From the sequence record SRR20825019_934: 32,501 bases of DNA; one strand, given 5' to 3'. Below are positions 4,616 through 27,612 of this stretch, piece after piece (within the stretch, counting starts at the first letter, position 1; every line of letters starts with the position of its first letter). The position numbers and the translations under genes were made by a program. The notes under the pieces are model-generated. The model did not search any database and had not been told where the DNA came from. It saw only the letters and a program-made list of their open reading frames with translations.

Positions 4616-5523
4616 CAGTCTTTTCCTTTGGCTCCGATCTCGGCGAGATACCAGTCGAGGATTTCCTCACCCGTCCACATCTGCACCCCTTCATGACCGA
4701 GGATGTGATCATAGAGCATTTCGAGATACTTGATCCGGTGGGGCGCGCCGGTCAGATAGGGGTGGATCGAGATCGCCATGATCCGGGGCGTCGTCGCTCC
4801 GTCCTGCCACAGCCGCTCGAAATGATCCTTGCCGCGGCGATATATCTCGTCGGACGGCTGACCCTGAACGGCGGTCATCACGACATCGTTGATCTCGACG
4901 GTATAGGGAACAGATGTCAGCCGCCCGGAGCGGGTCCTGATCGGCACCGGCTGGTCGTCGAGCACCCAGTCGGCGACATATTCGATCCCGGCCTCGGCCA
5001 GCAGGTCAGCAGTTTCGTCGGTCTCGGTGATGCCGGGGCTTTCCCAGCCGCGCGGGGCCTTGCCGGAAAAGGCGCGGATCGCGTCCATGGTCTTGGCGAT
5101 CGCTTCGGCCTGATCATCGACCTTGTGCATCGGTTTCTGGTGAAAGCCATGGCCCATGAATTCCCAGCCAGCGGACAGGGCGGCTTCGGCGGCCTGCGGA
5201 TAGGTGTCGATGGCTGAACCGTTGATCGCCAGCGTTGCCTTCAGGTCGCGCGATTTCAGCGCATCGAGAAAGCGCCAGAAGCCCACCCGCATGCCATATT
5301 CGTGCCAGGCCCAGTTGGGAACGTCGGGCAGCATCGGGACGCCCATGGGCGGGGGAAGGACCGCCCGCGGCATCGCCGCTGCAGGGTTCCAGGCCTCGAC
5401 GTTGACAATCGTCCACACCGCGACGCGCGCGCCGTTGGGGAGGCTGAGAGGAGGGCGGTCCGTGATCGGGCGGTAGGGCACGCGTTCGCGTACCGATGCG
5501 CCGAGCCTGTCTGCCTCTGTCAT
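4615..5523 (-). CDS. Polysaccharide deacetylase family protein (PuuE/allantoinase-like, CE4 fold)
   Basis: IVNVEAW, WHEYGMRVG, GWEFMGHG, PRGWESPG, DWVLDDQP, SIHPYLTGAPHR; RBS GGAAGGGAG. Confidence 0.9.
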   Translation of the reverse strand: MTEADRLGASVRERVPYRPITDRPPLSLPNGARVAVWTIVNVEAWNPAAAMPRAVLPPPMGVPMLPDVPNWAWHEYGMRVGFWRFLDALKSRDLKATLAINGSAIDTYPQAAEAALSAGWEFMGHGFHQKPMHKVDDQAEAIAKTMDAIRAFSGKAPRGWESPGITETDETADLLAEAGIEYVADWVLDDQPVPIRTRSGRLTSVPYTVEINDVVMTAVQGQPSDEIYRRGKDHFERLWQDGATTPRIMAISIHPYLTGAPHRIKYLEMLYDHILGHEGVQMWTGEEILDWYLAEIGAKGKD

Positions 5524-5548
5524 CTCAAAACTCCCTTCCTGTCGTCTG

Positions 5549-5584
5549 TGATATATTAGATATTAAATACCGTCTGCTTGTCAA
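5549..5584 (-). promoter_or_regulatory. Sigma70-like promoter of the deacetylase operon with candidate GntR operator repeats
   Basis: Minus-strand TTGACA (5579-5584)-N18-TCTAAT; 7-bp periodic ATATATT AGATATT AAATACC at 5551-5571 overlaps the -10. Confidence 0.5.
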
Positions 5585-5640
5585 AGGCTTTTTGAGCCAC
5601 TAAACTTTTGCCCACCTTGAAGCGCATGAAAGCGCGGGAC

Positions 5641-6369
5641 ATGAATTGGGATGGAAACGTGAAAAAACTCGGACTTCAGAAGCATGTGCAGGTCAGCCGC
5701 GCGGAGGCTGTGCGCGAAGCGCTCAGAGATGCCATCCTGTCAGGCCTGCTGCCGCCCGGCGAGCGTCTCAATCTGGACGAGATCGCCGAGGAGTTCGAGG
5801 TCAGCCGCATGCCGGTGCGCGATGCGGTGCGCCAGTTGGAGACGGAAGGTCTTGTGAAGGTGTTCCCCTACAAGGGGGTCGAGGTTTCCGCGCTGACCAT
5901 CGGCCAGCTCGAGGAACTCTTCACCTTGCGCAGCGCGCTTGAGCAGGTCGCGATAGAACGCGCCGTACCGCGCCTTTCCAAGGCGAGCCTTGCCGAGGCG
6001 CGCAGGATTCTCGAAAAGATCGATGCGCTGGAAGACCGCACCGCGCGCTGGCTGGAACTGAACGCACGGTTCCACCACAAGCTCAACGAGGCCTGTGGCT
6101 GGACGCGGCTTCTGGAAATGATCGACACGCTGCGCAGCAATGCCGACCGCTATGTCAGGACCTACGTTTCCAGCGCTGGCCTGACCGTTTCCCAGCAACA
6201 GCACTGGGCGCTTCTGGAGGCCTGCGAGGCCGGCGATGCGGCGGCCGCCAGGAAGGTCATCGACGCCCATCTGATGGGAACCGCCGAAAGCCTTATCGCG
6301 ATTCTGCAGCAAAACGGCGGCGAGACCGCGACCGCTCCGGCAAAGTTGAAAGACTTCGCTACCGACTAG
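5641..6369 (+). CDS. GntR-family (FCD domain) transcriptional regulator
   Basis: wHTH LRDAILSGLLPPGERL...VSRMPVRDA and FCD domain (NARFHH, QQHWALL). Start uncertain (5608, 5626, 5641 or 5659). Confidence 0.92.
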   Translation: MNWDGNVKKLGLQKHVQVSRAEAVREALRDAILSGLLPPGERLNLDEIAEEFEVSRMPVRDAVRQLETEGLVKVFPYKGVEVSALTIGQLEELFTLRSALEQVAIERAVPRLSKASLAEARRILEKIDALEDRTARWLELNARFHHKLNEACGWTRLLEMIDTLRSNADRYVRTYVSSAGLTVSQQQHWALLEACEAGDAAAARKVIDAHLMGTAESLIAILQQNGGETATAPAKLKDFATD

Positions 6370-6510: not shown

Positions 6511-7140
6511 TCAGATCCGATGCATGGCCTCGATTAACAGCTTCGCTTTCTGCGCGACGTCGGCAACGTCCATGCCGGGCTTGTAGAGCGCCCCGCCAAT
6601 GCCGAAACCGGATGCGCCGGCCCTGGCATAGGCTTCCATGTTTTCCGGCGTCACGCCGCCGACGGCGAAGACCGGGATTTCTTTCGGCAAGACCGCTTTC
6701 CACGCCTTGATGACGACCGGCGGAATGGCCTCGGCGGGGAAGGCCTTGACGCCGGCGGCGCCAGCCGCGATGGCGGCGAAGGCTTCCGTGGGCGTTGCAA
6801 CGCCGGGCAGGCTGATCATGGCTCTTGCGGCTGTCGCTTCGATCACCGCCGGGTTTGCGTTGGGCGAGATGATCACCCTCGCACCGGTCGCTGCGACATC
6901 GGCGACTTGCGCTGGCGTCAGTACGGTGCCGGCCCCGATCAGCGCGCGGTCACCGAAACGAGCCTGCAGCTTTTCGATGCTCCTGAGCGGATCGGGCGAA
7001 TTGAGCGGCACTTCGATGATGCGCCAGCCGGCCTCGATCAGCGCTTCGCCGACCGGCTCTGCCTCGTCGGGTCTGATGCCGCGCAGAATTGCGATCAGAT
7101 TGCATGCTTTCAGCGCTTCGGTGAAATTCATCGCGTTCAT
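6511..7140 (-). CDS. dgoA: 2-dehydro-3-deoxy-6-phosphogalactonate aldolase
   Basis: LIAILRGI, IEVPLNSP, GAGTVL, Schiff-base Lys in VKAFPAE, AVGGVTPEN; overlaps the dgoK stop. Confidence 0.95.
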   Translation of the reverse strand: MNAMNFTEALKACNLIAILRGIRPDEAEPVGEALIEAGWRIIEVPLNSPDPLRSIEKLQARFGDRALIGAGTVLTPAQVADVAATGARVIISPNANPAVIEATAARAMISLPGVATPTEAFAAIAAGAAGVKAFPAEAIPPVVIKAWKAVLPKEIPVFAVGGVTPENMEAYARAGASGFGIGGALYKPGMDVADVAQKAKLLIEAMHRI

Positions 7141-8078
7141 TCCTGTTCCGTCGATTGCAGTTTGCCGGTGATGCGTTGGACGCCGAGGGTTGCGGCGTCC
7201 TCGGGCCCCGGCTTGATCTCCAAGTCAAAAAGCGGCGCGATGCGCCCGTAGCGCAGGGTCAGCGCCGTGTTGCCGATGATGCCGATCGCTTCTCCCGGAT
7301 GCAGCCATCCGGCAGCCCGCGCCTGCCGGAATTCCGAGCCGATGAGGAGGCCCGAGACGTAATCGGCGATGTCTTCGGGCTGAAGGGCGCCTGCCAGAAT
7401 GCCGCTGCGGGCGCTGAAGACTGCGGAAAGCAGGGCATCGGCGGCGGGTTCGTCGCCTGCCGCAAATTCCGCCCCGCGATCGAAGGCGGACCAGATTGGC
7501 GCGCTGCCGGGAGCGCGCTCGGCGGCGCGCGCGATGAAGGAATGCCGGGTCAAAAGCGCGAATATTTCTCCGGTGGCAAAGGTCTGGAACGCGGCGATAC
7601 GACCGTTTTCAATACGCGCCCACTTGCTGTGGGTGCCGGGCAGCACCAGCGTGCGGTCCTCGGCAAGGCCATAGCCGACGATCTGCGTTTCCTCGCCGCG
7701 CATGACATCGGGAAACGGCTTTGCCGCCGGGTCGCGCATGCCGGGCAGGAAGGTCATGGCCGCGCCGTTTTGCAGCGTGATGCGCTTCGCGCCAGCGGCA
7801 AGCTCCGCTGGGCCTGCCGGCGCATCGACATAGGGCACCTCGATCCAGCCGCTGCGGCTGGTGATCATGCCGCTGGCAACGACCGGGAAGGGGTCGCGTT
7901 CAGCAAACCACGCGCCGATCGTCGCCATAAGCGCCGCCTCGAACGCGCCGCCTTCCACGAACTGGATGCCGCCGCCCTGGCTTTCGCGTCTGTCCAGCAC
8001 AAGCCCGTCGGACGAAAGCAGTGTGGCGCGGAGCGAACTGGTGCCCCAGTCGAGAATGGCGGTGACGGTATGGGTCAT
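7137..8078 (-). CDS. dgoK: 2-dehydro-3-deoxygalactonokinase
   Basis: DWGTSSLRA, SGMITSRSGW, PDVMRGEETQ, LPGTHSKW, SGLLIGSE. Confidence 0.95.
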   Translation of the reverse strand: MTHTVTAILDWGTSSLRATLLSSDGLVLDRRESQGGGIQFVEGGAFEAALMATIGAWFAERDPFPVVASGMITSRSGWIEVPYVDAPAGPAELAAGAKRITLQNGAAMTFLPGMRDPAAKPFPDVMRGEETQIVGYGLAEDRTLVLPGTHSKWARIENGRIAAFQTFATGEIFALLTRHSFIARAAERAPGSAPIWSAFDRGAEFAAGDEPAADALLSAVFSARSGILAGALQPEDIADYVSGLLIGSEFRQARAAGWLHPGEAIGIIGNTALTLRYGRIAPLFDLEIKPGPEDAATLGVQRITGKLQSTEQE

Positions 8079-8195
8079 GCGGTCGGTCTCATTTCCGGGC
8101 AAGGGCGTTTCGCGATTTCACGGAAGCGCCGGTCTTGGCGCATTTCGCGTCGAAGAAATAGCAGCCTGCAAAAGACTGCATCGCAAAATCACGCC

Positions 8196-8222: not shown

Positions 8223-9011
8223 CTAGTCACTTTGTTGCGTTTTTGGGGCGAGCCGCGTCCGGCGCAGCGCGTCGGTCATCTCGCTTCTGGCGACGCCGAT
8301 GAGTTGTTCCATGGCGTGGCGCGCGGCGTCCGGCCGGCGCATCCTGATCGCTTCAAGCACATCCTGATGAGCGAGGATCGCCTGCTCATGGGATTGGCTG
8401 GCGCGGTTCGTCAGACGAAAGCTCGCCAGAAGCGCTGCTCGGATGGCGCTGGCGAACTGGCGATAGACCCAGTTGCCGCTGGCGTTGATGATTGCGGTGT
8501 GGAATTCGAGGTCGGCCCGGCTCCACGCCTCATTGTCGCGCGCGTTGGCCTCGACCATATCCTCGAACGCCTTTGCGATCTGGTAAAGCTGTCTGGCATT
8601 GGCATTGGCGGCCGCCTGCGCCGCCGCTGCGGGCTCGAGAAGCTGTCGGGCGTCGATCAGCGATGAATAGAAAGAATCGTCCGCTCCGACGGCCAGCATG
8701 ACGTCGAGCACGATCGGATCGAGATAGTTCCAGTTTTCCCGCGGCAATACGATGGTGCCGGCGCGGGTGCGGGAGCGCACCATGCCGAGGGCGGAAAGAT
8801 ACTGCATGGATTCGCGCAGGCTGGTGCGGCTGACCCCGAACCGTTCCGTCAGTTCCACCTCGTTGGGCAGGGTTGCGCTCTCCGGAAATGTGCCGGAAAC
8901 GATCAATTCAACGAGGGACTGCAGCAGCGCCTCCCGTACGCTGCGCTTGCCGCGCTGGGCGATCGGCGCGCCGTCTTCCGTCAGGATTTGGGTCATTGCT
9001 TCGCTTTTCAC
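8223..9011 (-). CDS. FadR/GntR-family regulator (DgoR-like)
   Basis: LPNEVELTERFGVSRTSLRE wHTH, ADLEFHTAIINASGN FCD domain; lies upstream of dgoKA. Confidence 0.9.
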   Translation of the reverse strand: MKSEAMTQILTEDGAPIAQRGKRSVREALLQSLVELIVSGTFPESATLPNEVELTERFGVSRTSLRESMQYLSALGMVRSRTRAGTIVLPRENWNYLDPIVLDVMLAVGADDSFYSSLIDARQLLEPAAAAQAAANANARQLYQIAKAFEDMVEANARDNEAWSRADLEFHTAIINASGNWVYRQFASAIRAALLASFRLTNRASQSHEQAILAHQDVLEAIRMRRPDAARHAMEQLIGVARSEMTDALRRTRLAPKTQQSD

Positions 9012-9102: not shown

Positions 9103-9188
9103 AATATGATAGATATGGCTTCTTCATTCAAATTGAAAAATAAATCATATTTATAATTGACATTGATCGGACGTATTATAAGTATCGT
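9103..9188. promoter_or_regulatory. Divergent promoter region with repeated ATCATA(C/T)-type sites
   Basis: AT-rich; TTGACA at 9157-9162 flanked by ATCATATTTATAA (9144-9156) and inverted TTATAAGTATCGT (9176-9188); AATATGAT at 9103-9110. Confidence 0.55.
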
Positions 9189-9243: not shown

Positions 9244-10215
9244 ATGAAGCTCATCATCAAGGCGGCCTTGTTGGCTGCCGCCGCATTGTCGAGTGCGACA
9301 GCCGCTTCGGCGCAGGAAGACCTCAAGGTCGGCGCGATCTACATGGATGCGCAGGGATTTTATGCCGGTGTCCGCAAGGGCATCCAGGACGGCGCGGAAG
9401 ATGCCGGCCGCAATCTCGTCATCGTCGAAACCAACGCCCAGGGCGATGTCAGCAAGGAATCCTCCTTCATTGACTCGCTGATTTCCGCCGATGTCGAGGC
9501 GATCATCGTATCGCCGGTCTCCGCTGACGGCTCCTATCGCGCGATCCGTCGGGCCCACGACGCCGGCATTCCGGTGGTCTGCTACAATACCTGCCTCAAC
9601 GAACAGGACATGAAGGAATACATCTCCGCCTATGCTGTCGGCGACCCTTATGACTTCGGTCACAAGCTCGGCGATGCCGCGGCCGATTACTTCATTGCGG
9701 AAGGTAATGATGCGCCCAAGATCGCCGTGCTGAACTGCGAGTTCGTCGAAGTCTGCATCACTCGCAGAGAGGGTTTCGAGGCAGCGCTGATGGCCAAGGT
9801 GCCGGGCGCCGAGATCGTGGCCAACCAGGAAGGCGCCACCCTCGACAAGGCCGTTTCGGTCGCCACCACCATGCTGACCTCCAATCCTGATGTCGACGCC
9901 TTCTTCGGCGAGGCCGGCGGCGCCACGCTCGGGGCCGCGCGCGCCGTGCGTTCGCAGGGCAGGGAAGGCGAGGTCGTCGTTTTCGGTGGCGACATGACCA
10001 CCGAAATCGCCCAGGAACTTGCCGATTTCACGGTTATCAAGGGCGTTGTCGATATCTCCGGCCAGGGCCTTGGCAAGCTTGCGCTGGCGCAGGCGATCAA
10101 CTCGATCGATGGCACGCCGCCCGAAGGCATCAGGGTGCCGTATGATATCGATCTCTACCAGTCGTCGGAAGATGGCAAGGCCTGGCTCGAGGCGCATGCC
10201 GACGGCATTCCGTGA
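9244..10215 (+). CDS. yphF: Sugar ABC transporter substrate-binding protein, YphF-like
   Basis: Signal peptide; RBS GGGAGGAG; GAIYMDAQGFYAGVR, VCYNTCLN, NCEFVEVC and DMTTEIAQEL closely match E. coli YphF as recalled. Confidence 0.88.
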   Translation: MKLIIKAALLAAAALSSATAASAQEDLKVGAIYMDAQGFYAGVRKGIQDGAEDAGRNLVIVETNAQGDVSKESSFIDSLISADVEAIIVSPVSADGSYRAIRRAHDAGIPVVCYNTCLNEQDMKEYISAYAVGDPYDFGHKLGDAAADYFIAEGNDAPKIAVLNCEFVEVCITRREGFEAALMAKVPGAEIVANQEGATLDKAVSVATTMLTSNPDVDAFFGEAGGATLGAARAVRSQGREGEVVVFGGDMTTEIAQELADFTVIKGVVDISGQGLGKLALAQAINSIDGTPPEGIRVPYDIDLYQSSEDGKAWLEAHADGIP

Positions 10216-10310: not shown

Positions 10311-11837
10311 ATGACGTCTGCATCTCAGATCAACAGTCCGGAAATGCCGGCGCTCGTCGCCATGACAGGGTGCACGCGGCGCTATCCCGGCGTGCTGGCA
10401 CTCGACAATGCCGATTTCGAGGTCGCGCCGGGCGAAGTGCGCGCGCTTCTTGGCAAGAACGGCGCCGGCAAGTCGACGCTCATTCGCATGCTGACGGGCG
10501 CAGAAGTGCCCGACAGCGGAACCGTCCTGATCGACGGTGAGGAATTGACCCATACGGGTTCCGCCCGCGCGCAGCAGGCCTTTTCGCAGGGCGTGCGGGT
10601 GGTCTATCAGGAACTCAGCCTCATTCCCGGCATGTCGCTCGCCGAGAATCTGTTCCTCGGCCGATGGCCGCGAAAGGGCGGCGTCATCCGCCATCGCACC
10701 ATGATCGCCGAGGCCAACGAGGCAATGCATCGTCTCGGCCTCGAGCTTTCGCCCGATACCCTCGTCTCGGCGCTCAGCCCGGCCGAACGGCAGCTTCTGG
10801 AAATCGCAAGGGCGCTGCTCGGCAATCCCAAACTGGTGATTCTCGATGAGCCGACGAGCTCGCTTGCGGCAGCGGAGGCGGAGAAGGTGATGGCGGCCGT
10901 GACGCGCGTTGCAGCGCAAGGCATCGCGGTGATCTATGTCAGCCACCGGATGAATGAAATCCGCCAGATCGCCCATTCGGCCACGATCATGCGCGATGGC
11001 CGGATCATCGATACCGTCGATGTAAAAAACGCCGACACCCGCGAGATCGTCCGCCTCATGCTCGGCTCGGAAAGCGCCGAGGCGGCCGTGCTGGAAGATG
11101 CAAGCCAGCCGGAAATCGTGCTTGAGGTCAGGGATCTGGCGGTGGCGCCGAAACTGTCGTCGGTGTCGTTCTCGCTCAAGAAAGGCGAGGTTCTGGGGAT
11201 CGCCGGTCTGCTTGGTTCCGGCCGGACGGAACTGTTGCAGGCCATCATGGGGGTGCGTCGCGGCGACGCCGGCGAGATCTTCGCCAATGGCAAGCCGGTC
11301 AAATCGCTCGGCTACAAGCAGATGGTCAAGCTCGGCTTCGGCTATACGCCCGAAAGCCGCAAGGAAGAGGGAATCGTTCCGCTGCTCGGCGTCGATGAGA
11401 ACACCCTGTCGACGCGCTTCGAGGGCGTCACCGTCAACGGCGTCCTGTCGGCGCGGCGGATGGCGGAGGCGACCCGGAAGATCATTGACCGGCTGCATAT
11501 CAAGACGGCGCGGACCGACACGCCGATCGGCACGCTTTCCGGCGGCAACCAGCAAAAGGTCGTGATCGGCCGCTGGGTCTATGCCGGCAGCCGCATCCTT
11601 CTGCTCGACGAGCCCACCCGCGGCGTCGATATCGAGGCCAAGGCCCAGATCTATTCCATCATTCGCGAACTTGCCGCCGAAGGCCGCAGCATCGTTTTCG
11701 TCTCCAGCGAGATCGAGGAACTGCCGCTGGTGTGCGACCGGGTGCTGGTCCTCAGGGACGGCGCGCTCCGGGAAGAGTTCCGTTCCCCCAACATCGATCA
11801 GGACACCTTGATGGCGGCCTGCATTTCAGGACACTGA
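10311..11837 (+). CDS. yphE: Sugar ABC transporter ATP-binding protein (double NBD), YphE-like
   Basis: GKNGAGKST, LDEPTSSL, LSGGNQQK, LDEPTRGVD. Confidence 0.9.
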   Translation: MTSASQINSPEMPALVAMTGCTRRYPGVLALDNADFEVAPGEVRALLGKNGAGKSTLIRMLTGAEVPDSGTVLIDGEELTHTGSARAQQAFSQGVRVVYQELSLIPGMSLAENLFLGRWPRKGGVIRHRTMIAEANEAMHRLGLELSPDTLVSALSPAERQLLEIARALLGNPKLVILDEPTSSLAAAEAEKVMAAVTRVAAQGIAVIYVSHRMNEIRQIAHSATIMRDGRIIDTVDVKNADTREIVRLMLGSESAEAAVLEDASQPEIVLEVRDLAVAPKLSSVSFSLKKGEVLGIAGLLGSGRTELLQAIMGVRRGDAGEIFANGKPVKSLGYKQMVKLGFGYTPESRKEEGIVPLLGVDENTLSTRFEGVTVNGVLSARRMAEATRKIIDRLHIKTARTDTPIGTLSGGNQQKVVIGRWVYAGSRILLLDEPTRGVDIEAKAQIYSIIRELAAEGRSIVFVSSEIEELPLVCDRVLVLRDGALREEFRSPNIDQDTLMAACISGH

Positions 11838-11848
11838 CGGAGACGATG

Positions 11849-12850
11849 ATGTCGCACAATAACGCTGCCGACCCGGCCGCACCGAAGAAGAAAAGCGGCT
11901 TTGGCGTTTCGAAGCATATCAACGAACTCAGCCTGTTTGTGGCAATCGCGTTGCTTTATGTGATTTTCGGAACAACCGCCTACGGCTTCCTGTCGTTCAA
12001 CAATCAGGTGAATATTCTCCGCGATGCGGCGACGATCGGCATCGCGGCGTGGGCGATGACGCTGATCATCATCTCCGGCGAGATCGATGTCAGCGTCGGT
12101 CCGATGGTCGCTTTCGTCTCCGTCGCGCTGGCCTATCTGCTGCAATGGGGCTTCCCCACGCCGATAGCCTTCCTGCTGGCGGTAGCGCTCGGCGCCGGGC
12201 TCGGCGGCATTTCCGGCGTGCTGCGCGCCTATTTCGATGTGCCGTCCTTCGTCGCCACGCTCGGCATGTGGAGCGCGCTGCGCGGTCTGGCGCTGTTTTT
12301 CACGGATGCGCTGCCTGTCTCGATCGGGCGCAACGATACGCTGGATGCGCTCGACCGTTCGGTGCTGGGCATCCCGCCGGCGGCGATCATCATGCTCGTC
12401 CTGTTCGCGGCCTTCGCCTTCGTCAGCCGCAAGACGGCGTTCGGGCGGTCGGTGTTCGCGATTGGCGGCAATGCGCATGCGGCCTATCTCAGCGGCATCA
12501 ACGTATCGCGGATTCGCGTGGCGATCTTTGCGATCGGCGGCGCGATGGCGGCGATCTCCGGTATCCTGCTGGTCTCGCGTCTCGGCTCGGGCAATGCGAC
12601 GGCGGCAAGCGGCCTCGAATTCGATGTGATCGCGGCCGTGGTCGTCGGCGGCACGGCGCTCTCCGGCGGCCGCGGCTCCATGCTGGGAACGCTGCTCGGC
12701 GTTCTGGTGATCACGCTCATCGGCAACGGCCTGGTGCTTCTCGGCATCAATCCCTTCTTCCAGCAGGTCGTCCGGGGGCTCATCATCGTTGTCGCCGTGC
12801 TCGCCAACATGCAGGCGATCAAGCGCAGCCTGGCCCGCAACAAGGGGTGA
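11849..12850 (+). CDS. yphD: Sugar ABC transporter permease, YphD-like
   Basis: IISGEIDVSVG, VPSFVATLG, AAVVVGGTALSGGRG; start 11846 or 11849. Confidence 0.9.
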   Translation: MSHNNAADPAAPKKKSGFGVSKHINELSLFVAIALLYVIFGTTAYGFLSFNNQVNILRDAATIGIAAWAMTLIIISGEIDVSVGPMVAFVSVALAYLLQWGFPTPIAFLLAVALGAGLGGISGVLRAYFDVPSFVATLGMWSALRGLALFFTDALPVSIGRNDTLDALDRSVLGIPPAAIIMLVLFAAFAFVSRKTAFGRSVFAIGGNAHAAYLSGINVSRIRVAIFAIGGAMAAISGILLVSRLGSGNATAASGLEFDVIAAVVVGGTALSGGRGSMLGTLLGVLVITLIGNGLVLLGINPFFQQVVRGLIIVVAVLANMQAIKRSLARNKG

Positions 12851-12856
12851 GGGCAG

Positions 12857-13744
12857 ATGACGGTGGTTGATATCAGCTCCGGCGCCCTGTCACTGAGGGC
12901 ATCCACCAATGGCGGCGTGATCCTCGGCTTCTGGCGGGAGGGGGAAGGCGGCCGTGTGCCGTTGCTGCGTCCGGCACCTGACGGGGCGGATGCGCTGTCG
13001 TCGTCGTGTTACCCGCTGGTGCCGTTCGGAAACCGGGTGAGGGACAACCGGTTCGACTTCATGGGCCAAAAATACGCCCTGACCGCGAATACCGACTGGG
13101 ATCCGCATTACCTGCATGGCGAAGGATGGCTTTCGGACTGGGCGATCGAACAACACGAGGCCGACCGGCTGGCGATGCGTTTCCGCCATTCAGGCGGCGG
13201 CACGCCCTATGTCTACGAGGCGTGGCAGAGTTTTTCGCTTGGCGACGGTGAATTGCAGCTTACCCTCACCGTCGAGAACCAGGGGAGCGAGGCCCTGCCG
13301 TTCGGCCTCGGCTGGCATCCCTATTTCCCGATGACGCCGGAAACGACGCTGATGGCGCCGGCGCGAAAATTCTGGACCGAGGTCGAGGGATGGCTGCCGG
13401 GCGAAGCAACCGAGATTCCGCAGGACCTCGATTTCAGCAAAGCGGCACCCCTGCCGCACCGCTGGGTCAACAATGGCTTCGAGGACTGGTCCGGCGAAGC
13501 GGTGATTACCTGGCCGGAACGCGCGACGCGGCTTTCCCTGAAGGCGGAACCGCTGTTCAGGCACGCTTTCCTGTTCGTCTCGGATACCGCGTTCGACCCC
13601 GACTTTGCGCGGGACTATTTCTGTTTCGAACCGATGTCGCATCTGGCGGACGGGCACAATATGCCGGATCTCGGAGGGCTTCGCGTTCTTCAGCCCGGTG
13701 AGAAACTGTCGGGCAGCATCTGGCTGGGAGCGCAGGACCTATGA
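12857..13744 (+). CDS. yphB: Aldose 1-epimerase (mutarotase) family protein, YphB-like
   Basis: PLVPFGNR, YLHGEGW, GLGWHPYF, FCFEPMSH; FVSDTAFD segment as in YphB. Confidence 0.88.
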   Translation: MTVVDISSGALSLRASTNGGVILGFWREGEGGRVPLLRPAPDGADALSSSCYPLVPFGNRVRDNRFDFMGQKYALTANTDWDPHYLHGEGWLSDWAIEQHEADRLAMRFRHSGGGTPYVYEAWQSFSLGDGELQLTLTVENQGSEALPFGLGWHPYFPMTPETTLMAPARKFWTEVEGWLPGEATEIPQDLDFSKAAPLPHRWVNNGFEDWSGEAVITWPERATRLSLKAEPLFRHAFLFVSDTAFDPDFARDYFCFEPMSHLADGHNMPDLGGLRVLQPGEKLSGSIWLGAQDL

Positions 13745-15378
13745 GTGATCGCAACGAAACCACCGGGCAGGGACGCTACGACTATATCCTCGTCGGCGGC
13801 GGCAGTTCGGCCTGCGTGGTCGCGGCCGGTCTGGTCGAAAGCGGCGCGAGCGTGCTCATGCTGGAGCGCGGCCCGGCGAAGGCCAGCCCGATCATGCATT
13901 TCCCCGCCGGCTACATGAAGTTCCTGGCAAAGGACACTTATCTTTCGATGCACAAGACCGAGCCCCAGCATCAGCTTGACGGGCGCGGGCCGATCGTGCC
14001 GCAGGGCAAGGTGCTTGGCGGCGGCAGCACGGTCAACGCCATGGTCTACATGCGCGGTCAGGCGGCCGATTTCGACCTCTGGAACGAATTGGTGACGGAC
14101 GGCGAAAACGACGGCGCATGGTCCTACCGGGATATTCTGCCCTACTTCAAGGCGCAGGAAGACAACGACCATCTCGCCGGCGAATATCACGGCGTCGGCG
14201 GCCCGCTGAAAATCTCCGATCTCGGCCACACCAGCCCGATGACCCGCATTTATGTCAAAACCCTTCAGGGCATGGGCATTCCCTACAACCCGGATTTCAA
14301 CGGTGCGCACCAGTTCGGCGTCGGTTTCATGCAGCACACCATCGACTGGCGGACGCGTCGGCGCTGCAGCGCGGTCGACGCGTTTCTGGAGCCGGTCATG
14401 GCCAATCCGCTGCTGACGATCGTGACCGGGGCAACGGTCACGGCGATCCGCATGGAGGGCGACCGGGCGGTCGGCGTCGATTACGTGCGCGGCGGGGCCG
14501 GAACGTCCGCGTTCGCGGACAGCGAAGTGATTTTGGCGGCTGGGGCATATCAGACGCCCAAACTGCTGATGCTTTCCGGGATCGGGCCGGAGGACGAACT
14601 CGCCCGCCACGGCATCGGGGTCAGGGTCCCGCTTGCCGGCGTCGGGCGCAATCTGCAGGATCATTATGAATGCCCTGTGGTCGCCACCACCAAGGGGGCT
14701 TTCGGCTATTACGGGCAGGATCGCGGCTGGCCGATGATCAAGGCGGGCCTTCAGTACCTGCTGTTCAAATCCGGCCCGGCTACGACGACCGGCGTCGAAA
14801 CCTGCGCCTTCCACGATCCGGAGGGCAATAACGATCGGCCGACGATCCAGATGTTCTGCGTGCCGACCGTCTATCTCGACCGCGATGTGATGGGCACGGA
14901 CCCCGGCGATGGTGTGACCATCAATTCGCTGCTTCTGCGGCCGAAGTCGCGCGGCTCGGTGACGCTCACCTCCAGCGATCCGTTCGCCGATCCGGTGGTC
15001 GATACCCGGATTTTCAGCCACCCCGACGATCTCAGGGTGACGATGGCGGGTTTGCGTTACGCCCGCACCGTGCTCGCCGCCTCGCCGATGCGCGAACTGA
15101 TCGACAGGGAAATTTTTCCGGGCGCCGATGTGACCAGCGACGAGGCGATCGCGACGCATTGCAAGCGCACCGTCAAGACCGGCTATCACCCGGTCGGCAC
15201 CTGCCGGATGGGCCGCGACGATGATCCGGACGCCGTGCTCGACAGTCGCCTCCGGGTCCGGGGCACAAGGGGCCTCAGGGTCATCGACGCCTCGCTGATG
15301 CCGACCATCGTCAGCGGCAACACCAATGCCGCCGTTCTTGCCGCCGCCGCCAAGGCGACCGACCTCATACTTCCCTGA
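13741..15378 (+). CDS. GMC-family FAD oxidoreductase (cytoplasmic)
   Basis: DYILVGGGSS, GKVLGGGSTVNAMVY, GVGRNLQDH, YHPVGTC, SGNTNA (His/Asn pair); no signal peptide. Confidence 0.93.
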   Translation: MSDRNETTGQGRYDYILVGGGSSACVVAAGLVESGASVLMLERGPAKASPIMHFPAGYMKFLAKDTYLSMHKTEPQHQLDGRGPIVPQGKVLGGGSTVNAMVYMRGQAADFDLWNELVTDGENDGAWSYRDILPYFKAQEDNDHLAGEYHGVGGPLKISDLGHTSPMTRIYVKTLQGMGIPYNPDFNGAHQFGVGFMQHTIDWRTRRRCSAVDAFLEPVMANPLLTIVTGATVTAIRMEGDRAVGVDYVRGGAGTSAFADSEVILAAGAYQTPKLLMLSGIGPEDELARHGIGVRVPLAGVGRNLQDHYECPVVATTKGAFGYYGQDRGWPMIKAGLQYLLFKSGPATTTGVETCAFHDPEGNNDRPTIQMFCVPTVYLDRDVMGTDPGDGVTINSLLLRPKSRGSVTLTSSDPFADPVVDTRIFSHPDDLRVTMAGLRYARTVLAASPMRELIDREIFPGADVTSDEAIATHCKRTVKTGYHPVGTCRMGRDDDPDAVLDSRLRVRGTRGLRVIDASLMPTIVSGNTNAAVLAAAAKATDLILP

Positions 15379-15390
15379 TCGGAACCCGAC

Positions 15391-16539
15391 ATGAAGATCA
15401 CCAAGCTCACCACCTATCTGGCCCCGCCGCGCTGGCTGTTTCTGAAGATCGAGACCGATGAGGGCATTGTCGGCTGGGGCGAGCCGGTTGTGGAAGGCCG
15501 CGCGCTCACCGTTCAGGCGGCCGTCAACGAGATGGCGGATTACCTCATCGGCAAGGATCCGTTCCTGATCGAGGATCACTGGACCGTGCTTTATCGCGGC
15601 GGGTTCTACCGGGGCGGCGCGATCCACATGTCGGCGCTGGCGGGTATCGACCAGGCGCTGTGGGATATCAAGGGCAAGGCGCTCGGGCAGCCGGTCCACG
15701 CGCTGCTCGGCGGCCAGTTGAGGAACCGCATCAAGGTCTATTCGTGGATCGGCGGCGACCGTCCTTCCGACGTTGCAAGGAACGCGAAAGAGGTGGTCGC
15801 GCGCGGCTTCAAGGCCATCAAGCTCAATGGCTGCGAGGAAATGCAGATCGTCGATACCAATGAGAAGGTCGAAAAGGCAGTGGAGACCATCGCGATCATC
15901 CGCGAGGTCGTCGGTCCCCATATCGGCATCGGTGTTGATTTTCACGGTCGGGTCCACAAGCCTATGGCCAAGGTTTTGGCCAAGGAGCTGGAGCCCTACA
16001 AGCTGATGTTCATCGAGGAGCCGGTGCTTTCGGAAAACAGGGAAGCCCTGAGGGAGATCGCCAACCATTCCTCCACGCCGATAGCACTTGGGGAGCGGCT
16101 CTATTCGCGCTGGGATTTCAAGCCGATCTTCGAGGGCGGCTATGTCGACATCATCCAGCCGGATCTGTCGCATGCCGGCGGCATCACCGAATGCCGCAAG
16201 ATCGCCGCCATGGCGGAGGCGTACGACGTCGCGCTGGCGCCGCATTGTCCGCTCGGGCCGATCGCGCTTGCCGCCTGCCTTCAGGTGGATGCCGTCGCCT
16301 ACAACGCCTTCATCCAGGAGCAGAGCCTGGGGATCCACTATAACGAGACCAACGACATTCTGGACTATATTTCGAACAAGGACGTCTTCGAATATGCCGA
16401 TGGCTTCGTCAGCATACCGCAGGGGCCGGGGCTGGGCATCGAGATCGACGAGGCCTATGTGATCGAGCGCGCCAGAGAAGGCCATCGCTGGCGCAATCCG
16501 ATCTGGCGTCATCCGGATGGAAGTTTCGCGGAGTGGTGA
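15391..16539 (+). CDS. dgoD: D-galactonate dehydratase
   Basis: [61 protein letters not shown]. Confidence 0.96.
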
Positions 16540-16549
16540 GGAGAGTACA

Positions 16550-17329
16550 ATGACGGGACGGCTTTCCGGCAAGAATATATTCGTCACGGGCGCGGCGCAG
16601 GGCATCGGTCTTGCGATCGCAAAGGCCTTCGCGAACGAAGGTGCGTCGCTGTTCATGGTCGACCGCGATGGCGCGCTTCTGGAACGCGAGGCCAGGGCGC
16701 TTGGCGCGCGTGGAGGAGCGATCGGCTGGTGCGCCGCCGATATCACGGATGCCGGCGCGATCGCGGCCGCGATGCGTCAGGCGGCGAAGGAAATCGGACC
16801 GGTCAACGCCTTGGTCAACAATGCCGGCGTCAACGTCTTTGCCGAACCGCTCGAGACGAGCGACGAGGAATGGAACCGCTGCTTCGACATCAATCTCAAG
16901 GGCGCGTGGAACTGCTGCAAGGCCGCGCTTCCGGGCATGATCGCGGCTGACGGCGGCGTCATCCTCAACATCGCCTCCACCCATGCCTTCACCATCATCC
17001 CGCATACCTTTCCCTATCCGCTGGCAAAGCATGCGCTGCTCGGCATGACCAAGTCCCTCGGCCTTGAATATGCCGCACGCAACATTCGGGTAAACGCGCT
17101 GGCGCCCGGCTATGTGGCGACGCAGAAGGTCATCGACTACTGGAACAGTTTTCCCGATCCCGAGGCTGCGAAAGCGGAGACCATGAGCCTCCATCCCGGC
17201 GGCCGGATCGCCACCCCCGGCGAGATCGCGATGGCGGCGGTGTTCATGATCTCCGACGAATGCCCGTTCATGAATGCGACCTGCCTGACGGTCGACGGCG
17301 GCCTCAGCGTCCAGCAACATCCTGCCTGA
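16550..17329 (+). CDS. Short-chain dehydrogenase of the dgo-associated type (candidate galactose 1-dehydrogenase)
   Basis: TGAAQGIG, NNAG, STHAFTIIPHTFPYPLAKH (YxxxK); RBS GAGGAG. Confidence 0.85.
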   Translation: MTGRLSGKNIFVTGAAQGIGLAIAKAFANEGASLFMVDRDGALLEREARALGARGGAIGWCAADITDAGAIAAAMRQAAKEIGPVNALVNNAGVNVFAEPLETSDEEWNRCFDINLKGAWNCCKAALPGMIAADGGVILNIASTHAFTIIPHTFPYPLAKHALLGMTKSLGLEYAARNIRVNALAPGYVATQKVIDYWNSFPDPEAAKAETMSLHPGGRIATPGEIAMAAVFMISDECPFMNATCLTVDGGLSVQQHPA

Positions 17330-19965: not shown

Positions 19966-20046
19966 TCCAGCCCGATGCGCTAGGTGCCACCCTGGCTGCG
20001 TTGGTGCAATCAGTCCTACTTTGTTTCTTGTCATGCGCGCCTGGGC

Positions 20047-20078
20047 AATACCATAAACATGGTATTTTGTAAGTTACA
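20047..20078. promoter_or_regulatory. Palindromes between the response regulator and the divergent small ORF
   Basis: Perfect AATACCAT-aaac-ATGGTATT (20047-20066) and TGTAA-g-TTACA (20068-20078). Confidence 0.55.
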
Positions 20079-20146
20079 TCGAACCTATAAGAACCTTTCA
20101 GCGCTTGAGAAAGATTTTCGAATCTTGAGCCAAAACGGGGATTGAA

Positions 20147-20410
20147 ATGCATTCCGCCACTGAAAGACGACGGGTTGAACCAGACCGAAGGCGTAAATCG
20201 CCGTCACGCATTTTTACGTGTCAATGCGGCCATCGTTTGCGTTTTGGTTCTACGACCTGCGGTAGCTGCTATCACATTACGCCATTCTACAATCGTCGCT
20301 GGCCCTATCTTATTTTATCTATAGTATTGGGTTTGCTCGGTGTAATGATAATGATATTAAGCGCATTGTTTCTTTATATGAAGGTTTCGGGATTTAGTAA
20401 TTTTATATAG
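20147..20410 (+). CDS. Small hypothetical protein: Cys-rich (zinc-ribbon-like) segment plus one TM helix
   Basis: 87 aa; CQCGH...CGSC followed by hydrophobic YLILSIVLGLLGVMIMILSALFLY; GGGG upstream of ATG. Confidence 0.55.
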   Translation: MHSATERRRVEPDRRRKSPSRIFTCQCGHRLRFGSTTCGSCYHITPFYNRRWPYLILSIVLGLLGVMIMILSALFLYMKVSGFSNFI

Positions 20411-20474
20411 TTTAATTTTACATAAACAAATATTAACTGACGTATAAATTTAAAATTCGGGCTCTGTTGTTGAT

Positions 20475-20990
20475 CATGCCGCTGTGATCTGCGACGGGGC
20501 CCGGCCCTCTTCCGGGCGCGCTGCATATCGAGTGGTCCATGACCCGGATATCGCGCGCTCAACTGCCCGGACCCTGGCGCATCGCGAGTGCCTGTTTGGT
20601 AAGTGGTGCCGCATGTTATCCTGCCTCAACCGTATTCGCCTATGCGCTGCTCGGGCTCGACGGCCGGAATATCGAAATCGCTGAAAATTCATCCCGGTGG
20701 AGTATCAGCCTGTCTGTCGCAATGCGCGGAGGCGATGTTCAATCTCCATATGGCGAAGCCCCGGCGGAAACTGATGTGCACTCTGCAGGCCGGCGTCCGT
20801 CACGTCATCGGCGGCGAGCGTACCGGCGGGCGTCGCGAATTTCCGGCGCGTCGTCATCCCACCGGAGCGGAAGCGCCGAGGGTTTCAACAGTCGGGGTAT
20901 TTCGGCCAGCCTGGCAATATGCCGCCTGAGCGCCGTGCGAAAGCGCTTCAAAAGGACTATGTATGGCGGCCAGATTTCGCGCCAGTCTCA
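20475..20990 (+). pseudogene. Probable degraded gene remnant, unidentified
   Basis: GC3-rich, coding-like stretches switch between + frames (LPGALHIEWS..FAYALLGLDGRNIE; AEAMFNLHMAKP..HVIGGE; GVANFRRVVIP); no intact plausible ORF. Confidence 0.3.
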
Positions 20991-20999
20991 TACCAAGGC

Positions 21000-21740
21000 T
21001 CAGTGCACCCCGGTAATCATGGCGATGATCTCGTTCTTGTCGGTTTCGGCGGTGTTGCGCACTCCGATCTGCTTTCCCCGGCGCAGCACGCAGATGCGAT
21101 CGGAGAGCTTGAAGACCTGATCGAGGCTGTGGCTGACGATCAGGATGCCGATATCGCGCTTCTTCAGCGTCTGGACGATTTCCTCGACCTTGGCGGTTTC
21201 GGCGACGCCGAGTGCTGCCGTCGGTTCATCGAGCAGGACGAGCTTGCTGGCCCAGTGCGTGGCGCGGGCGATTGCAACGCCCTGCCGCTGGCCGCCGGAG
21301 AGGTCGCGGATCGTGGCATGCGCGGACGGGATGCGGACGTCCAGTTCCTTCACCAGCATTTCGGTTTCCGCGATCATCTTCCTGCGGTCGAGCAGGCCGA
21401 GCGCATTGACGGGTTCGCGCCCGAGAAACATGTTCATGTAGACGGTCTGCTGGTCGGCAAGAGCGAGGTCCTGGTAAACGACCTCGATCCCGTGGCCGCG
21501 CGCCATCGTGGCATTCGCCATCGTGACAGGCCTGCCATCGATCATGATTGTGCCTGAGGTCGGCGCATGGACACCGGAGATGATCTTGATCAGGGTCGAT
21601 TTCCCCGCTCCGTTATCGCCGACCAGCGCGACAATTTCGCCGGGATGAACCGCGAGTGAAAAATTCTCGATGGCGACTACGGCGTCGAAACTCTTGTGAA
21701 TGTCCCGGAGTTCGAGAACCGGCTGTTCAGTTGGCATCAC
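21000..21740 (-). CDS. Sugar-type ABC transporter ATP-binding protein (single NBD)
   Basis: GDNGAGKST, LSGGQRQ, LDEPTAALG; RBS AGGAG. Confidence 0.93.
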   Translation of the reverse strand: MMPTEQPVLELRDIHKSFDAVVAIENFSLAVHPGEIVALVGDNGAGKSTLIKIISGVHAPTSGTIMIDGRPVTMANATMARGHGIEVVYQDLALADQQTVYMNMFLGREPVNALGLLDRRKMIAETEMLVKELDVRIPSAHATIRDLSGGQRQGVAIARATHWASKLVLLDEPTAALGVAETAKVEEIVQTLKKRDIGILIVSHSLDQVFKLSDRICVLRRGKQIGVRNTAETDKNEIIAMITGVH

Positions 21741-21746
21741 GTTCTC

Positions 21747-22946
21747 CTAAAGCGGCCAGGCGGCGGTCTCGCCATTGGTATATTCGATGGTCTCGACCTC
21801 CGGCGCGCCGCTGGAAATGCCGGAGACGCCGACGACATAGGCGCGGGTGACGAAGGCCTGTCCGCGAAAGCCGAAAATCGCGGTGTCGCCGGGCTTCGGC
21901 GCGGCGGGTCCGGTAGCGTCGATCATGGCGTAATAGTCGATCATCGACGGCGGCGGCACCTCGACGCTTAGCAGCGACGACGCGGTGGTTGTCGGCTCGG
22001 CGGAGACGATGGCTTTGACATCATAGTCCGGGAAGATCGGATCGATGTAGAAGCCGCCGCCGAAAGCATAGGCCTTGCCGCCCGAAAGGTGCGAGACCTC
22101 GGTGAGATAGAGCATGGCGGGACGCTCCGGCAGTTCTTCGACGACATGGAGCGCGGTCGTCCCATGAAGGCCATTGCCGGGTTCCACCTGGGTAGCGCCA
22201 GCCTCGGCCAGTGCTGCAAGCACGACGCTCGACGTCGTGCCGGGCGCGTTGACCTCGATATCGCGTCGGCCGCTTCTGGCGAGCGCCTCGGCGGCCTTTG
22301 CAAGCGTCGCGAGGTTTTTCGTCGGCAGGACCTTGCGACTTTCGTGATCGTAGAGCAGGGCGGGGAAGGTGGCGATACCGGCGAAACGACCGCCATCCAA
22401 ACGGTCCAGCATATCGGCGACATCGGTCACGTCACGCGCTGCAAAACCGCCTTCGTGGCCGCGGTAGAAGGTGTCTCCCTCGGCATGGATGCGGGCGAGA
22501 AGGTTCTGCGTGCGGCCCGCCTTTGCCGATGCTGAAGCCGCTTCCCGTGCCTTTTCGGCGTTGAAAACGGTCCAGTAATCGGGGGCGAGGGTTGTGGCGG
22601 CGGCTTCCGCCTCTGCGCGGGCGATCTGCTGCAGGTGTCCCAGATGGCCTACCTTCATGCCGGCCTTGTGGGTCGCGCGGGCGCAGGCCATGTCGACGGC
22701 GACCGAGCGCTCGATACCGCCGCGCATGATCGCCTTGCAGGCAGAGCTTGCGCGGCCGAATTGCTTGGTCATGGCGAATATTTTCAGGCCGTGACGATCG
22801 GCTTCCGATTTCAGGAGGCGCGCGTTCGCCTCGAGCGTGTCGAGATCGATGACATAGGCGTTCGCCGGGATACTTCCCGCCTGATGGAGCGTCTGGGCAG
22901 CCTCGATGAAGGCGGGGTTTCGGTTGCGAAGGCTTTCAAGAAACAT
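21747..22946 (-). CDS. YhfX-family PLP-dependent enzyme (alanine racemase-like, fold type III)
   Basis: MFLESLRNRNP, PLP Lys in AMTKQFGR, GHLQQI, YRGHEGGF, EPGNGLHGT, FRGQAFVTR, as recalled for E. coli YhfX. Confidence 0.88.
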   Translation of the reverse strand: MFLESLRNRNPAFIEAAQTLHQAGSIPANAYVIDLDTLEANARLLKSEADRHGLKIFAMTKQFGRASSACKAIMRGGIERSVAVDMACARATHKAGMKVGHLGHLQQIARAEAEAAATTLAPDYWTVFNAEKAREAASASAKAGRTQNLLARIHAEGDTFYRGHEGGFAARDVTDVADMLDRLDGGRFAGIATFPALLYDHESRKVLPTKNLATLAKAAEALARSGRRDIEVNAPGTTSSVVLAALAEAGATQVEPGNGLHGTTALHVVEELPERPAMLYLTEVSHLSGGKAYAFGGGFYIDPIFPDYDVKAIVSAEPTTTASSLLSVEVPPPSMIDYYAMIDATGPAAPKPGDTAIFGFRGQAFVTRAYVVGVSGISSGAPEVETIEYTNGETAAWPL

Positions 22947-22956
22947 CTGTCGCTCC

Positions 22957-23919
22957 TTATCTGGATTTGTCGCGCAGCGAGACGGAAACGGCGGCGAGGA
23001 TGATCAACCCGCGCACGATCATCTGGTCGGAGACCGACAGGCCCATCAGGATAAGGCCGTTGTTGAGCATGCCCATCATCAGTGAACCGACGAGCGCGCC
23101 GATGACCGAGCCCTTGCCGCCGCTCAAAAGCGTGCCGCCGACGATGACGGCGGCGATGACGGTCATGAGATCGGTCTCGCCAAGCGTATATTTGGCGGCC
23201 TGCAGGCGGCCGGCATAAAGCAGCCCGGCGAGGCCTGCGAGGCCGCCCGAGATCATCAGCACGGCCAGCCGCATGCGGGTGACGCTGATGCCGGAGACGC
23301 TGGCCGCGCGGGCATTGTCGCCGAGCGCCAGCACATGCGCGCCGAACCGGGTTTGCCGATAGATGATATGTCCGAAGCCGACGGCAATCACGACCCACCA
23401 GATCAGCGATGGGATGCCGAGGAGCGAACCGGAGCCGAAAAAGCCGGTGAAGGCCTCGTTGATCACGGGAATGCTGCGCAGATTGGTCATGGAGCGGGAG
23501 ACGCCGGCAAACAGCCCCATCGTCGCGAGCGTGACCAGGAACGAGGGCAGCCGGACATAGGCGACCAGCACGCCGTTGATGAAGCCGATCAGAAGCCCTG
23601 CGGCAAGTCCTGCGGCGATGCCCGCCGCAAGGCCGTAGCTGGAGAGCGTCACCGCCGCCGCCAGCGCCGAGACCGCAACCGTGGAACCGATCGAAAGATC
23701 GATCTCGCCGGCTGAGAGAACGAAAACCAGCCCGATCGCCATGATCGTGATCGGGGTGGTCTGCAGCACGATGTTCGTCAGGTTGCGCACCGTCAGAAAA
23801 CCGCTGTCCTTCAGGACGATGGCGAAGAACAGGAAGATCGCCACGAAGCCGACATAGACCACATAGTGTTTGAGGTTCGCATAGCTTGCCAACCGGGGCT
23901 TTGCCGTTGCGTGGGACAT
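22957..23919 (-). CDS. Sugar-type ABC transporter permease (RbsC family)
   Basis: GEIDLSIG, LPSFLVTL, IAAVIVGGTLLSGGKG. Confidence 0.93.
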   Translation of the reverse strand: MSHATAKPRLASYANLKHYVVYVGFVAIFLFFAIVLKDSGFLTVRNLTNIVLQTTPITIMAIGLVFVLSAGEIDLSIGSTVAVSALAAAVTLSSYGLAAGIAAGLAAGLLIGFINGVLVAYVRLPSFLVTLATMGLFAGVSRSMTNLRSIPVINEAFTGFFGSGSLLGIPSLIWWVVIAVGFGHIIYRQTRFGAHVLALGDNARAASVSGISVTRMRLAVLMISGGLAGLAGLLYAGRLQAAKYTLGETDLMTVIAAVIVGGTLLSGGKGSVIGALVGSLMMGMLNNGLILMGLSVSDQMIVRGLIILAAVSVSLRDKSR

Positions 23920-23961
23920 TCCGGTTCTCCTTGCATTGTCATCGTGTCATCGCGTCGGCGG

Positions 23962-23985
23962 GAGCGGCGGCCGGGGCCGCCGCTC
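23962..23985 (-). other. Intercistronic hairpin after the binding-protein gene
   Basis: Perfect inverted repeat GAGCGGCGGCC-gg-GGCCGCCGCTC; no U-tract. Confidence 0.6.
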
Positions 23986-23989
23986 ATGC

Positions 23990-25051: not shown

Positions 25052-25083
25052 GTTCAGGTTCCCCTTTTCTCGGTTGAACAATT

Positions 25084-27551: not shown

Positions 27552-27561
27552 ATATGCTTCT

Positions 27562-27612
27562 TTCATTCGTTCTATGAACGAACTAATTAAACCAGGCGCC
27601 GAATGTCGTCAA
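27562..27612 (-). promoter_or_regulatory. ROK operator and promoter
   Basis: TTCGTTC-tat-GAACGAA (27566-27582) within TTCATTCGTTCTATGAACGAACTAA, an XylR-type ROK operator shape; minus-strand TTGACG (27607-27612)-N17-TAATTA. Confidence 0.7.

Follow-up and report, generated by a model that had tools for sequence, protein, structure and literature searches.

The window considered here (the whole stretch of 32,501 nt from sequence record SRR20825019_934) carries a gene cluster arranged in two divergent blocks. On the minus strand, dgoA is leftmost (6511..7140; NF006600, score 283 against a cut-off of 207, written below as 283/207), followed by dgoK for 2-keto-3-deoxygalactonate kinase (7137..8102; PF05035, E 4e-80) and the gene for the FadR/GntR regulator of the cluster (8223..9011; PF00392 and PF07729). 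The plus-strand block contains the orthologues of four E. coli yph genes: yphF, encoding a periplasmic sugar-binding protein (9244..10215; 57% to E. coli YphF, PF13407); yphE, an ABC ATPase (10311..11837; 57% to E. coli K-12 YphE); yphD, an ABC permease (11846..12850; 69% to E. coli K-12 YphD); and yphB, a member of the aldose 1-epimerase (mutarotase) family (12857..13744; 47% to YphB, PF01263; PDB 3nre, E 1e-87). These are followed by a gene for a GMC flavoenzyme (13741..15378), by dgoD for D-galactonate dehydratase (15391..16539; NF010624, 716/311), and by a gene for a PRK07063-family SDR (16550..17329; NF005469, 410/306), which its context suggests may be a D-galactose 1-dehydrogenase. DgoD, DgoK, and DgoA all pass their own family models; the window's cluster contains no lactonase gene. 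The closest solved structure to YphF is reached at only E 3e-22 in the PDB comparison, and since neither the binding protein nor the SDR has a close solved structure, no ligand is transferred to either. In genome-level checks the window's organism is represented by a stand-in, Martelella mediterranea (GMC 92%).

The intergenic region between the FadR gene and yphF includes a near-palindrome, ATAAAT-N2-TATTTAT, adjoining a TTGACA hexamer (9140..9162, plus strand) and conserved 5' of yphF. Among 58 FadR-yphF intergenic regions, the 8-mer AAATAAAT is present in 52 and TATTGACA in 40. The near-palindrome is likely to be an operator and TTGACA the -35 box of the operon. An E. coli DgoR operator motif has no site in the window at up to two mismatches.

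The GMC open reading frame encodes 545 amino acids; its start overlaps the yphB stop through ATGA (13741-13744), and 12 nt (15379-15390) separate its stop from the dgoD ATG, in agreement with the 4-nt overlap and 12-nt spacing of the original prediction. An opposite-strand open reading frame of 1018 amino acids (13690-16746) is taken to be a shadow frame. Both Pfam domains of the family are present (PF00732, GMC_oxred_N, 148/23; PF05199, GMC_oxred_C, 141/24.6). The dinucleotide-binding Rossmann motif begins at residue 14, the first 40 residues contain no twin-arginine (RR) motif, and a Met lies no more than nine residues from the Rossmann motif in 99 of 100 orthologue frames that have the motif (13 in the window's GMC); together these leave no room for a signal peptide, which is therefore unlikely, as had been predicted from the window alone. 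The predicted His/Asn pair likewise holds: H483 (YHPVG) and N527 (GNTN) are invariant in all 44 aligned orthologues and align with the YH and GN motifs of the chloramphenicol oxidoreductase 8b7s. We take them to be the catalytic pair by transfer from choline oxidase, and Val98 presumably stands where GMC enzymes with covalent flavin have His. The enzyme is proposed to be a cytoplasmic alditol C1 dehydrogenase or oxidase.

The nearest database proteins are from Martelella (90-93%). The best solved relatives are chloramphenicol oxidoreductase (8b7s), fatty acid photodecarboxylase, choline dehydrogenase, and alcohol oxidases, among which are oxidisers of primary alcohols. Two named families were considered and set aside, as the GMC scores under the NCBIfam cut-offs for choline dehydrogenase BetA (NF002550, 470/605; TIGR01810, 385/732) and for mycofactocin dehydrogenase MftG (TIGR03970, 271/387). 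BetA, 8b7s, and pyridoxine 4-oxidase are, like the window's enzyme, GMCs with a His/Asn pair, and they act on primary alcohols, as is proposed for it; they differ from it in gene context and pocket residues. More distant relatives (45-55%) are mostly found with sugar ABC systems, often together with acid-sugar dehydratases or lactonases, so the wider subfamily appears to be sugar-related. In a tree of GMC sequences, the copies associated with yph genes and those associated with a permease (see below) form one clade (support 100), with copies from Microvirga as its sister (95). Enzymes from the yph and permease contexts share their predicted pocket residues, apart from a Y-to-F substitution in two rows, and the Microvirga enzyme differs at two of the 39 listed positions; this match is partly circular, because the positions were drawn from the alignment's conserved columns.

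Conservation of the neighbourhood was followed in the best 80 of 142 GMC loci found. The recurring arrangement is FadR, divergent from yphFED-yphB-GMC-dgoD-SDR: in these 80 loci yphF, yphE, and yphD are present in 62, yphB in 63, dgoD in 61, the SDR gene in 68, and a FadR orthologue in 59; dgoK and dgoA are present in only six and five, respectively. An AraF-type system lies upstream in 11 of the best 80 of 142. A complementary arrangement comes from 105 SDR matches, from which four plasmid loci were opened (Aureimonas, Aminobacter, Rhizobium WL3, and S. meliloti); all four combine araFGH with the same FadR, dgoD, and SDR genes and lack the GMC gene, and the first three contain the epimerase gene. 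Conversely, R. leguminosarum WSM1325 keeps yphFEDB-GMC at a locus with neither dgoD nor the SDR gene. The absence of the GMC gene from the araFGH versions and its retention with yphFEDB in WSM1325 indicate that it belongs to the importer and not to dgoD. AraF proteins bind L-arabinose and D-galactose, so the core module would consume D-galactose, and the GMC enzyme would convert the YphF ligand into it. Comparative genomics gives good support to the additional upstream oxidation of the original prediction and to its link with the yph importer, and an oxidation step that feeds DgoD probably exists.

The same comparison bears on whether the GMC enzyme might itself be an aldose 1-dehydrogenase for D-galactose, redundant with the SDR. 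Glucose oxidases belong to the GMC family, and in Shinella a 54% relative adjoins dgoD with no SDR gene beside it, but the clusters importing galactose or arabinose through araFGH do without the GMC enzyme, the SDR is retained in 68 of the best 80 of 142 GMC loci, and the closest solved relatives are enzymes other than glucose oxidases; this reading is very improbable.

Two further contexts bear on the type of substrate. In 15 of the best 80 of 142 loci, the GMC gene comes after a gene for a permease of the RbtT/DalT/CsbX polyol family (TIGR00897, 470/375), and an M24-family gene lies 3' of the GMC gene in all 15. The hosts are Pantoea, Erwinia and their kin, Burkholderia, Caballeronia, and Salinisphaera; the loci mostly carry the PRK07063 SDR gene too (390/306). 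The Salinisphaera locus additionally has dgoK, dgoA, and dgoD, and dgoD is found elsewhere in the genome in each of four other permease-type genomes tested. In all 12 enteric loci of this type, an orthologue of E. coli YphH (57-62%) is encoded divergently, and this neighbourhood links the GMC gene to the yph system a second time and independently. The remaining context consists of two Microvirga loci, in which a GMC orthologue (66-67%) lies between a polyol ABC system, whose SmoE-type binding protein matches PDB 4rya at E 1e-174 in the one locus (L073) where it is seen, and mannitol dehydrogenase. A separate Zn-dependent dehydrogenase gene adjoins the Microvirga locus; we take it to be of the sorbitol/xylitol dehydrogenase family. 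The GMC gene occupies the SmoS slot of an smoEFGK-type polyol operon, and the SmoS family has no match at E<=1e-60 in two Microvirga genomes, one a partial assembly of 2.5 Mb; nor does the Microvirga genome contain DgoD or the PRK07063 SDR above cut-off. In S. meliloti, SmoS is a sorbitol and galactitol dehydrogenase required for the use of both, according to the available text of PMC10433430. A sugar alcohol is the substrate suggested by the three distinct transporter settings, of which two belong to polyol families.

In the route proposed here, the genes, their families, their orthologies, and their co-occurrence are observed directly, and from them we infer the reaction steps. YphFED would import a polyol of D-galacto configuration, most likely galactitol. 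The FAD enzyme would take a hydride from C1, His483 serving as base in partnership with Asn527; FAD would be bound non-covalently, and O2 or a quinone-type acceptor would regenerate its oxidised form. The product would be D-galactose, whose anomers YphB would equilibrate, and which the SDR would convert to galactonolactone; this could open spontaneously or through an unlinked lactonase, and DgoD, DgoK, and DgoA would then yield pyruvate and glyceraldehyde 3-phosphate. We favour, with moderate confidence, the reading that the GMC enzyme uses FAD to oxidise an imported polyol of D-galacto configuration at C1, yielding D-galactose.

The naming of related sequences suggests a different chemistry. 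GMC orthologues carry the automatic name sorbosone dehydrogenase, and a 48% relative that of L-sorbose 1-dehydrogenase, which leaves room for a ketose substrate: the enzyme could oxidise C1 of a ketose such as D-tagatose to a 2-keto-aldose, which the SDR and other enzymes would bring to D-galactonate. YphF, as a monosaccharide-type binding protein, would suit such a substrate. The names are, however, automatic transfers, and among the GMC's family-model and solved-structure matches there is no L-sorbose 1-dehydrogenase model or chain. In addition, the conserved cluster lacks an aldehyde dehydrogenase, an aldose mutarotase and the araFGH clusters both suit an aldose product, and D-tagatose does not support growth of E. 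coli MG1655 according to the available text of PMC9720028; a ketose route is accordingly improbable.

If the substrate is a polyol, its identity is a separate matter. Galactitol was the example given by the original prediction and is still the simplest option, being the single plain compound that gives D-galactose by one C1 oxidation; other evidence weighs against it. A GatZ/KbaZ-family tagatose 6-phosphate epimerase is encoded in 35 of 50 GMC-positive genomes and in 43 of 151 genomes of the family sample, a comparison in which genome size and the use of that route for tagatose are confounders. The known galactitol route is therefore not displaced where the GMC route exists, and these counts do not support the idea that it makes up for the lack of a tagatose route. 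The GMC gene itself is found in only four of the 151 family-sample genomes, too few for a comparison within the sample. In E. coli MG1655, moreover, the yph genes are intact and gatC is a pseudogene, and the strain is not known to use galactitol, so galactitol fits poorly as the substrate of the E. coli yph system unless the yph genes are silent. For galactitol itself as the substrate, we consider the chances somewhat below even.

Retention of the tagatose route and a failure of K-12 to grow on galactitol would both be accounted for if the enzyme held the same position in the pathway and acted on another substrate, a galactitol derivative or rarer precursor leading to D-galactose or a close aldose. 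Candidates are 1-amino- or 1-O-substituted galactitol, an anhydro-alditol, or a conjugate released through YphG or the M24 protein. Enteric versions do have an extra hydrolase-like gene, either yphG beside YphC or the M24 gene (15 of 15 permease-type GMC loci), and one 63% GMC relative lies beside an AnmK-family kinase gene. The alphaproteobacterial clusters, including one of YphC type (locus L208, described below), contain neither yphG nor the M24 gene, which would make a deconjugation step unnecessary there, and the smo context in Microvirga suits plain polyols. A derivative is thus an unlikely substrate, though less so than a ketose.

The original prediction placed the GMC gene where E. coli has yphC. 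The E. coli order is yphF-E-D-C-B and that of the window F-E-D-B-GMC; the GMC gene thus lies on the opposite side of yphB and not literally in the slot of YphC. Over a 10-kb range, neither the window nor any of the 62 yph-type GMC loci contains yphC, yphG, or yphH, neither yphC nor yphG occurs in any of the best 80 of 142 GMC loci, and yphC has no match at E<=1e-40 in five GMC-positive genomes. Independent sampling by yphF recovered the gene in 19 of 401 Enterobacteriaceae, eight of 401 Rhizobiales, and one of 301 Rhodobacterales genomes (the last being the genome at the centre of the sample), together with 80 metagenome loci. In all, 169 yphF loci were collected, of which 25 were dropped as too short. 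The 144 informative loci comprise 83 with the GMC gene only, 60 with yphC only, none with both, and one with a frameshifted yphC; 62 of the 83 GMC loci were recovered through the GMC gene itself, and many loci are near-copies. The 81 loci found through yphF alone divide into 20 with GMC, 60 with yphC, and one with the broken yphC. A phylum-wide search for yphC gave two of 401 genomes, both previously in the sample.

Mutual exclusion of the two genes thus holds at the level of clusters and is qualified in two respects: the distribution amounts to only two changes on a tree of 33 dereplicated YphF rows, and one genome (G586) holds both a YphC cluster and, separately, the 63% GMC relative adjoining the kinase gene. 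Both facts, together with the position of the two genes on different sides of yphB, would also follow if GMC and YphC catalysed different reactions on a shared import or on related ones, the exclusion being lineage history and not replacement. YphC could, for example, be a secondary-alcohol dehydrogenase, as its closest families, the threonine and inosose dehydrogenases, have secondary alcohols as substrates. Against this, locus L208 (genome G515) has yphF-E-D-C-B in the E. coli order with FadR and pairs YphC with a divergent galactonate dehydratase (317/311; 36% to that of the window) and a PRK07063 SDR (397/306), making it the best single case for YphC doing the GMC step. Likewise, one YphF subclade is split, with GMC in three loci and YphC in two, and GMC is accompanied by YphH in the enterics. 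Different chemistry for the two enzymes is possible, if doubtful. Replacement of YphC by GMC, the other part of the original prediction, gains from the exclusion and from the shared downstream enzymes of L208 and is weakened by the small number of changes on the tree; on balance it seems somewhat more probable that the GMC enzyme performs the same step as YphC in YphC-type clusters.

Several characterised systems resemble parts of the proposed pathway. The De Ley-Doudoroff pathway consists of galactose dehydrogenase, a lactonase, DgoD, DgoK, and DgoA (available text of PMC6927180); the window shares dgoD, dgoK, and dgoA with it and differs by the addition of the GMC step and the YphFED importer upstream and by a cluster without a lactonase. 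The yphABCDEFGH genes of E. coli, every product of which is still 'putative' in the K-12 record, correspond to the window in the YphF, E, D, and B orthologues (47-69%) and to the enteric GMC copies in the YphH orthologues beside them. The window differs from E. coli yph in lacking yphC, yphG, yphA, and yphH, in its FadR regulator, in the GMC gene after yphB, and in the linkage to dgo genes. A GMC enzyme that oxidises the CH2OH of a sugar to the aldehyde is the L-sorbose 1-dehydrogenase of Gluconobacter; compared by description and not by sequence, it has the GMC fold and the CH2OH oxidation proposed here, and relatives of the window's enzyme share its name by automatic transfer, but its substrate is a ketose. 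The closest functional analogue of the proposed reaction is the alditol oxidase AldO of Streptomyces, a flavin-dependent enzyme that oxidises polyols at C1 to aldoses; it has the VAO/PCMH fold with covalent FAD and is not a GMC. The smoEFGK-smoS-mtlK system of S. meliloti resembles the Microvirga arrangement in importing a polyol and then oxidising it, with the GMC gene in the SmoS slot; SmoS differs as an NAD+-dependent SDR that makes a ketose (oxidation at C2, giving D-tagatose as stated in the title of a 2019 paper that PMC10433430 cites), in contrast to the aldose proposed for GMC (C1), and S. meliloti uses the tagatose route for galactitol (available text of PMC10433430).

Published literature, searched with most subscription journals out of reach, yielded no account of this cluster, of the GMC clade, or of what the yph system takes as its substrate, and the available parts of PMC9007349 and bioRxiv 072470 contain nothing on these subjects. 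The one mention of yph that the literature gave is that YphF is induced on levoglucosan alongside many carbon-limitation transporters (available text of PMC8753852); levoglucosan is not taken to be a yph substrate. The GMC pathway is probably a new entry into the De Ley-Doudoroff pathway, which is itself known, and no new kind of system. A broader reading, which we advance tentatively and regard as doubtful in its entirety, is that the enzymes form an undescribed clade of GMC-fold alditol 1-dehydrogenases through which galactitol enters the De Ley-Doudoroff pathway by way of an aldose, that YphC is interchangeable with GMC, that the E. coli yph system takes up this polyol too, once YphG has freed it, and brings it to D-galactose, and that the linked M24 protein represents a novel kind of sugar lactonase.

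To our knowledge, C1 oxidation of polyols by a flavoenzyme is known solely for the unrelated alditol oxidase fold; the window's enzyme would be a candidate GMC for this reaction and may be of use in rare-sugar biocatalysis. Rhizobia prefer sugar alcohols as carbon sources (available text of PMC10433430), and the cluster, a conserved one of soil bacteria, recurs often in the rhizobial loci recovered. For E. coli, the proposed route would provide the first concrete, testable pathway for the yph genes, whose orthologues are tied to galactonate catabolism in two independent ways.

A second YphF subclade (L049, L061, L066, L104 and L207) carries a GMC of another type, and three of these loci (L066, L104 and L207) hold a parallel importer-GMC-SDR-dehydratase module. 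An L-rhamnonate dehydratase and an L-rhamnose dehydrogenase are encoded in these three loci; the dehydratase model scores 486 against a cut-off of 393 in L207, and the dehydrogenase model 414 against 400 in L104.

In G586, a genome that also has a YphC cluster, a 63% GMC relative (L212:5852-10552) is accompanied by a LacI regulator gene, a gene for an AnmK-family kinase, and sugar ABC genes; a 3-oxo-tetronate 4-phosphate decarboxylase is encoded close by. In Shinella (L209:8779-12447), a 54% GMC relative has a gene annotated as dgoD on one side and one for a DHDPS-family aldolase on the other; this locus has an ABC system from a different family and lacks an SDR.

In all 15 permease-type loci, which encode an RbtT/DalT/CsbX polyol-family permease, GMC is followed by an M24-family gene (e.g., L071:11692-12777; L083:9965-10930 is recorded under the same observation). 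The encoded protein, whose match to PF00557 is weak, may be a sugar lactonase instead of a peptidase. A 34% relative is found in a Thermus xylA-xylB operon, adjoining a gene for a Gfo/Idh/MocA oxidoreductase.

Upstream of yphF in the window lies an operator-like near-palindrome that adjoins TTGACA (9140-9162); of 58 intergenic regions between the FadR gene and yphF, most preserve it. Elsewhere in the window, a separate catabolic cluster contains asparaginase-family, aldehyde dehydrogenase, polysaccharide deacetylase and GntR genes (2088-6369); the stretch after a NarL-type response regulator (20035-20999) is low in GC (0.515 versus about 0.63); and a second sugar ABC cluster (21000-27566) includes genes for a YhfX-like PLP protein, an M20 peptidase and a ROK regulator.

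In genome G046, yphC is frameshifted (L196:5833-6967) while the rest of the yph operon is identical to that of E. coli. YphC has relatives (58-84%) in Bacteroides, Spirochaetales and Vibrio nigripulchritudo (P0209, P0224, P0123), and the control genomes of E. coli and B. thetaiotaomicron each have a match to DUF5107 (YphG). The gene surroundings of these YphC relatives and DUF5107 matches could provide a pointer to the substrate.
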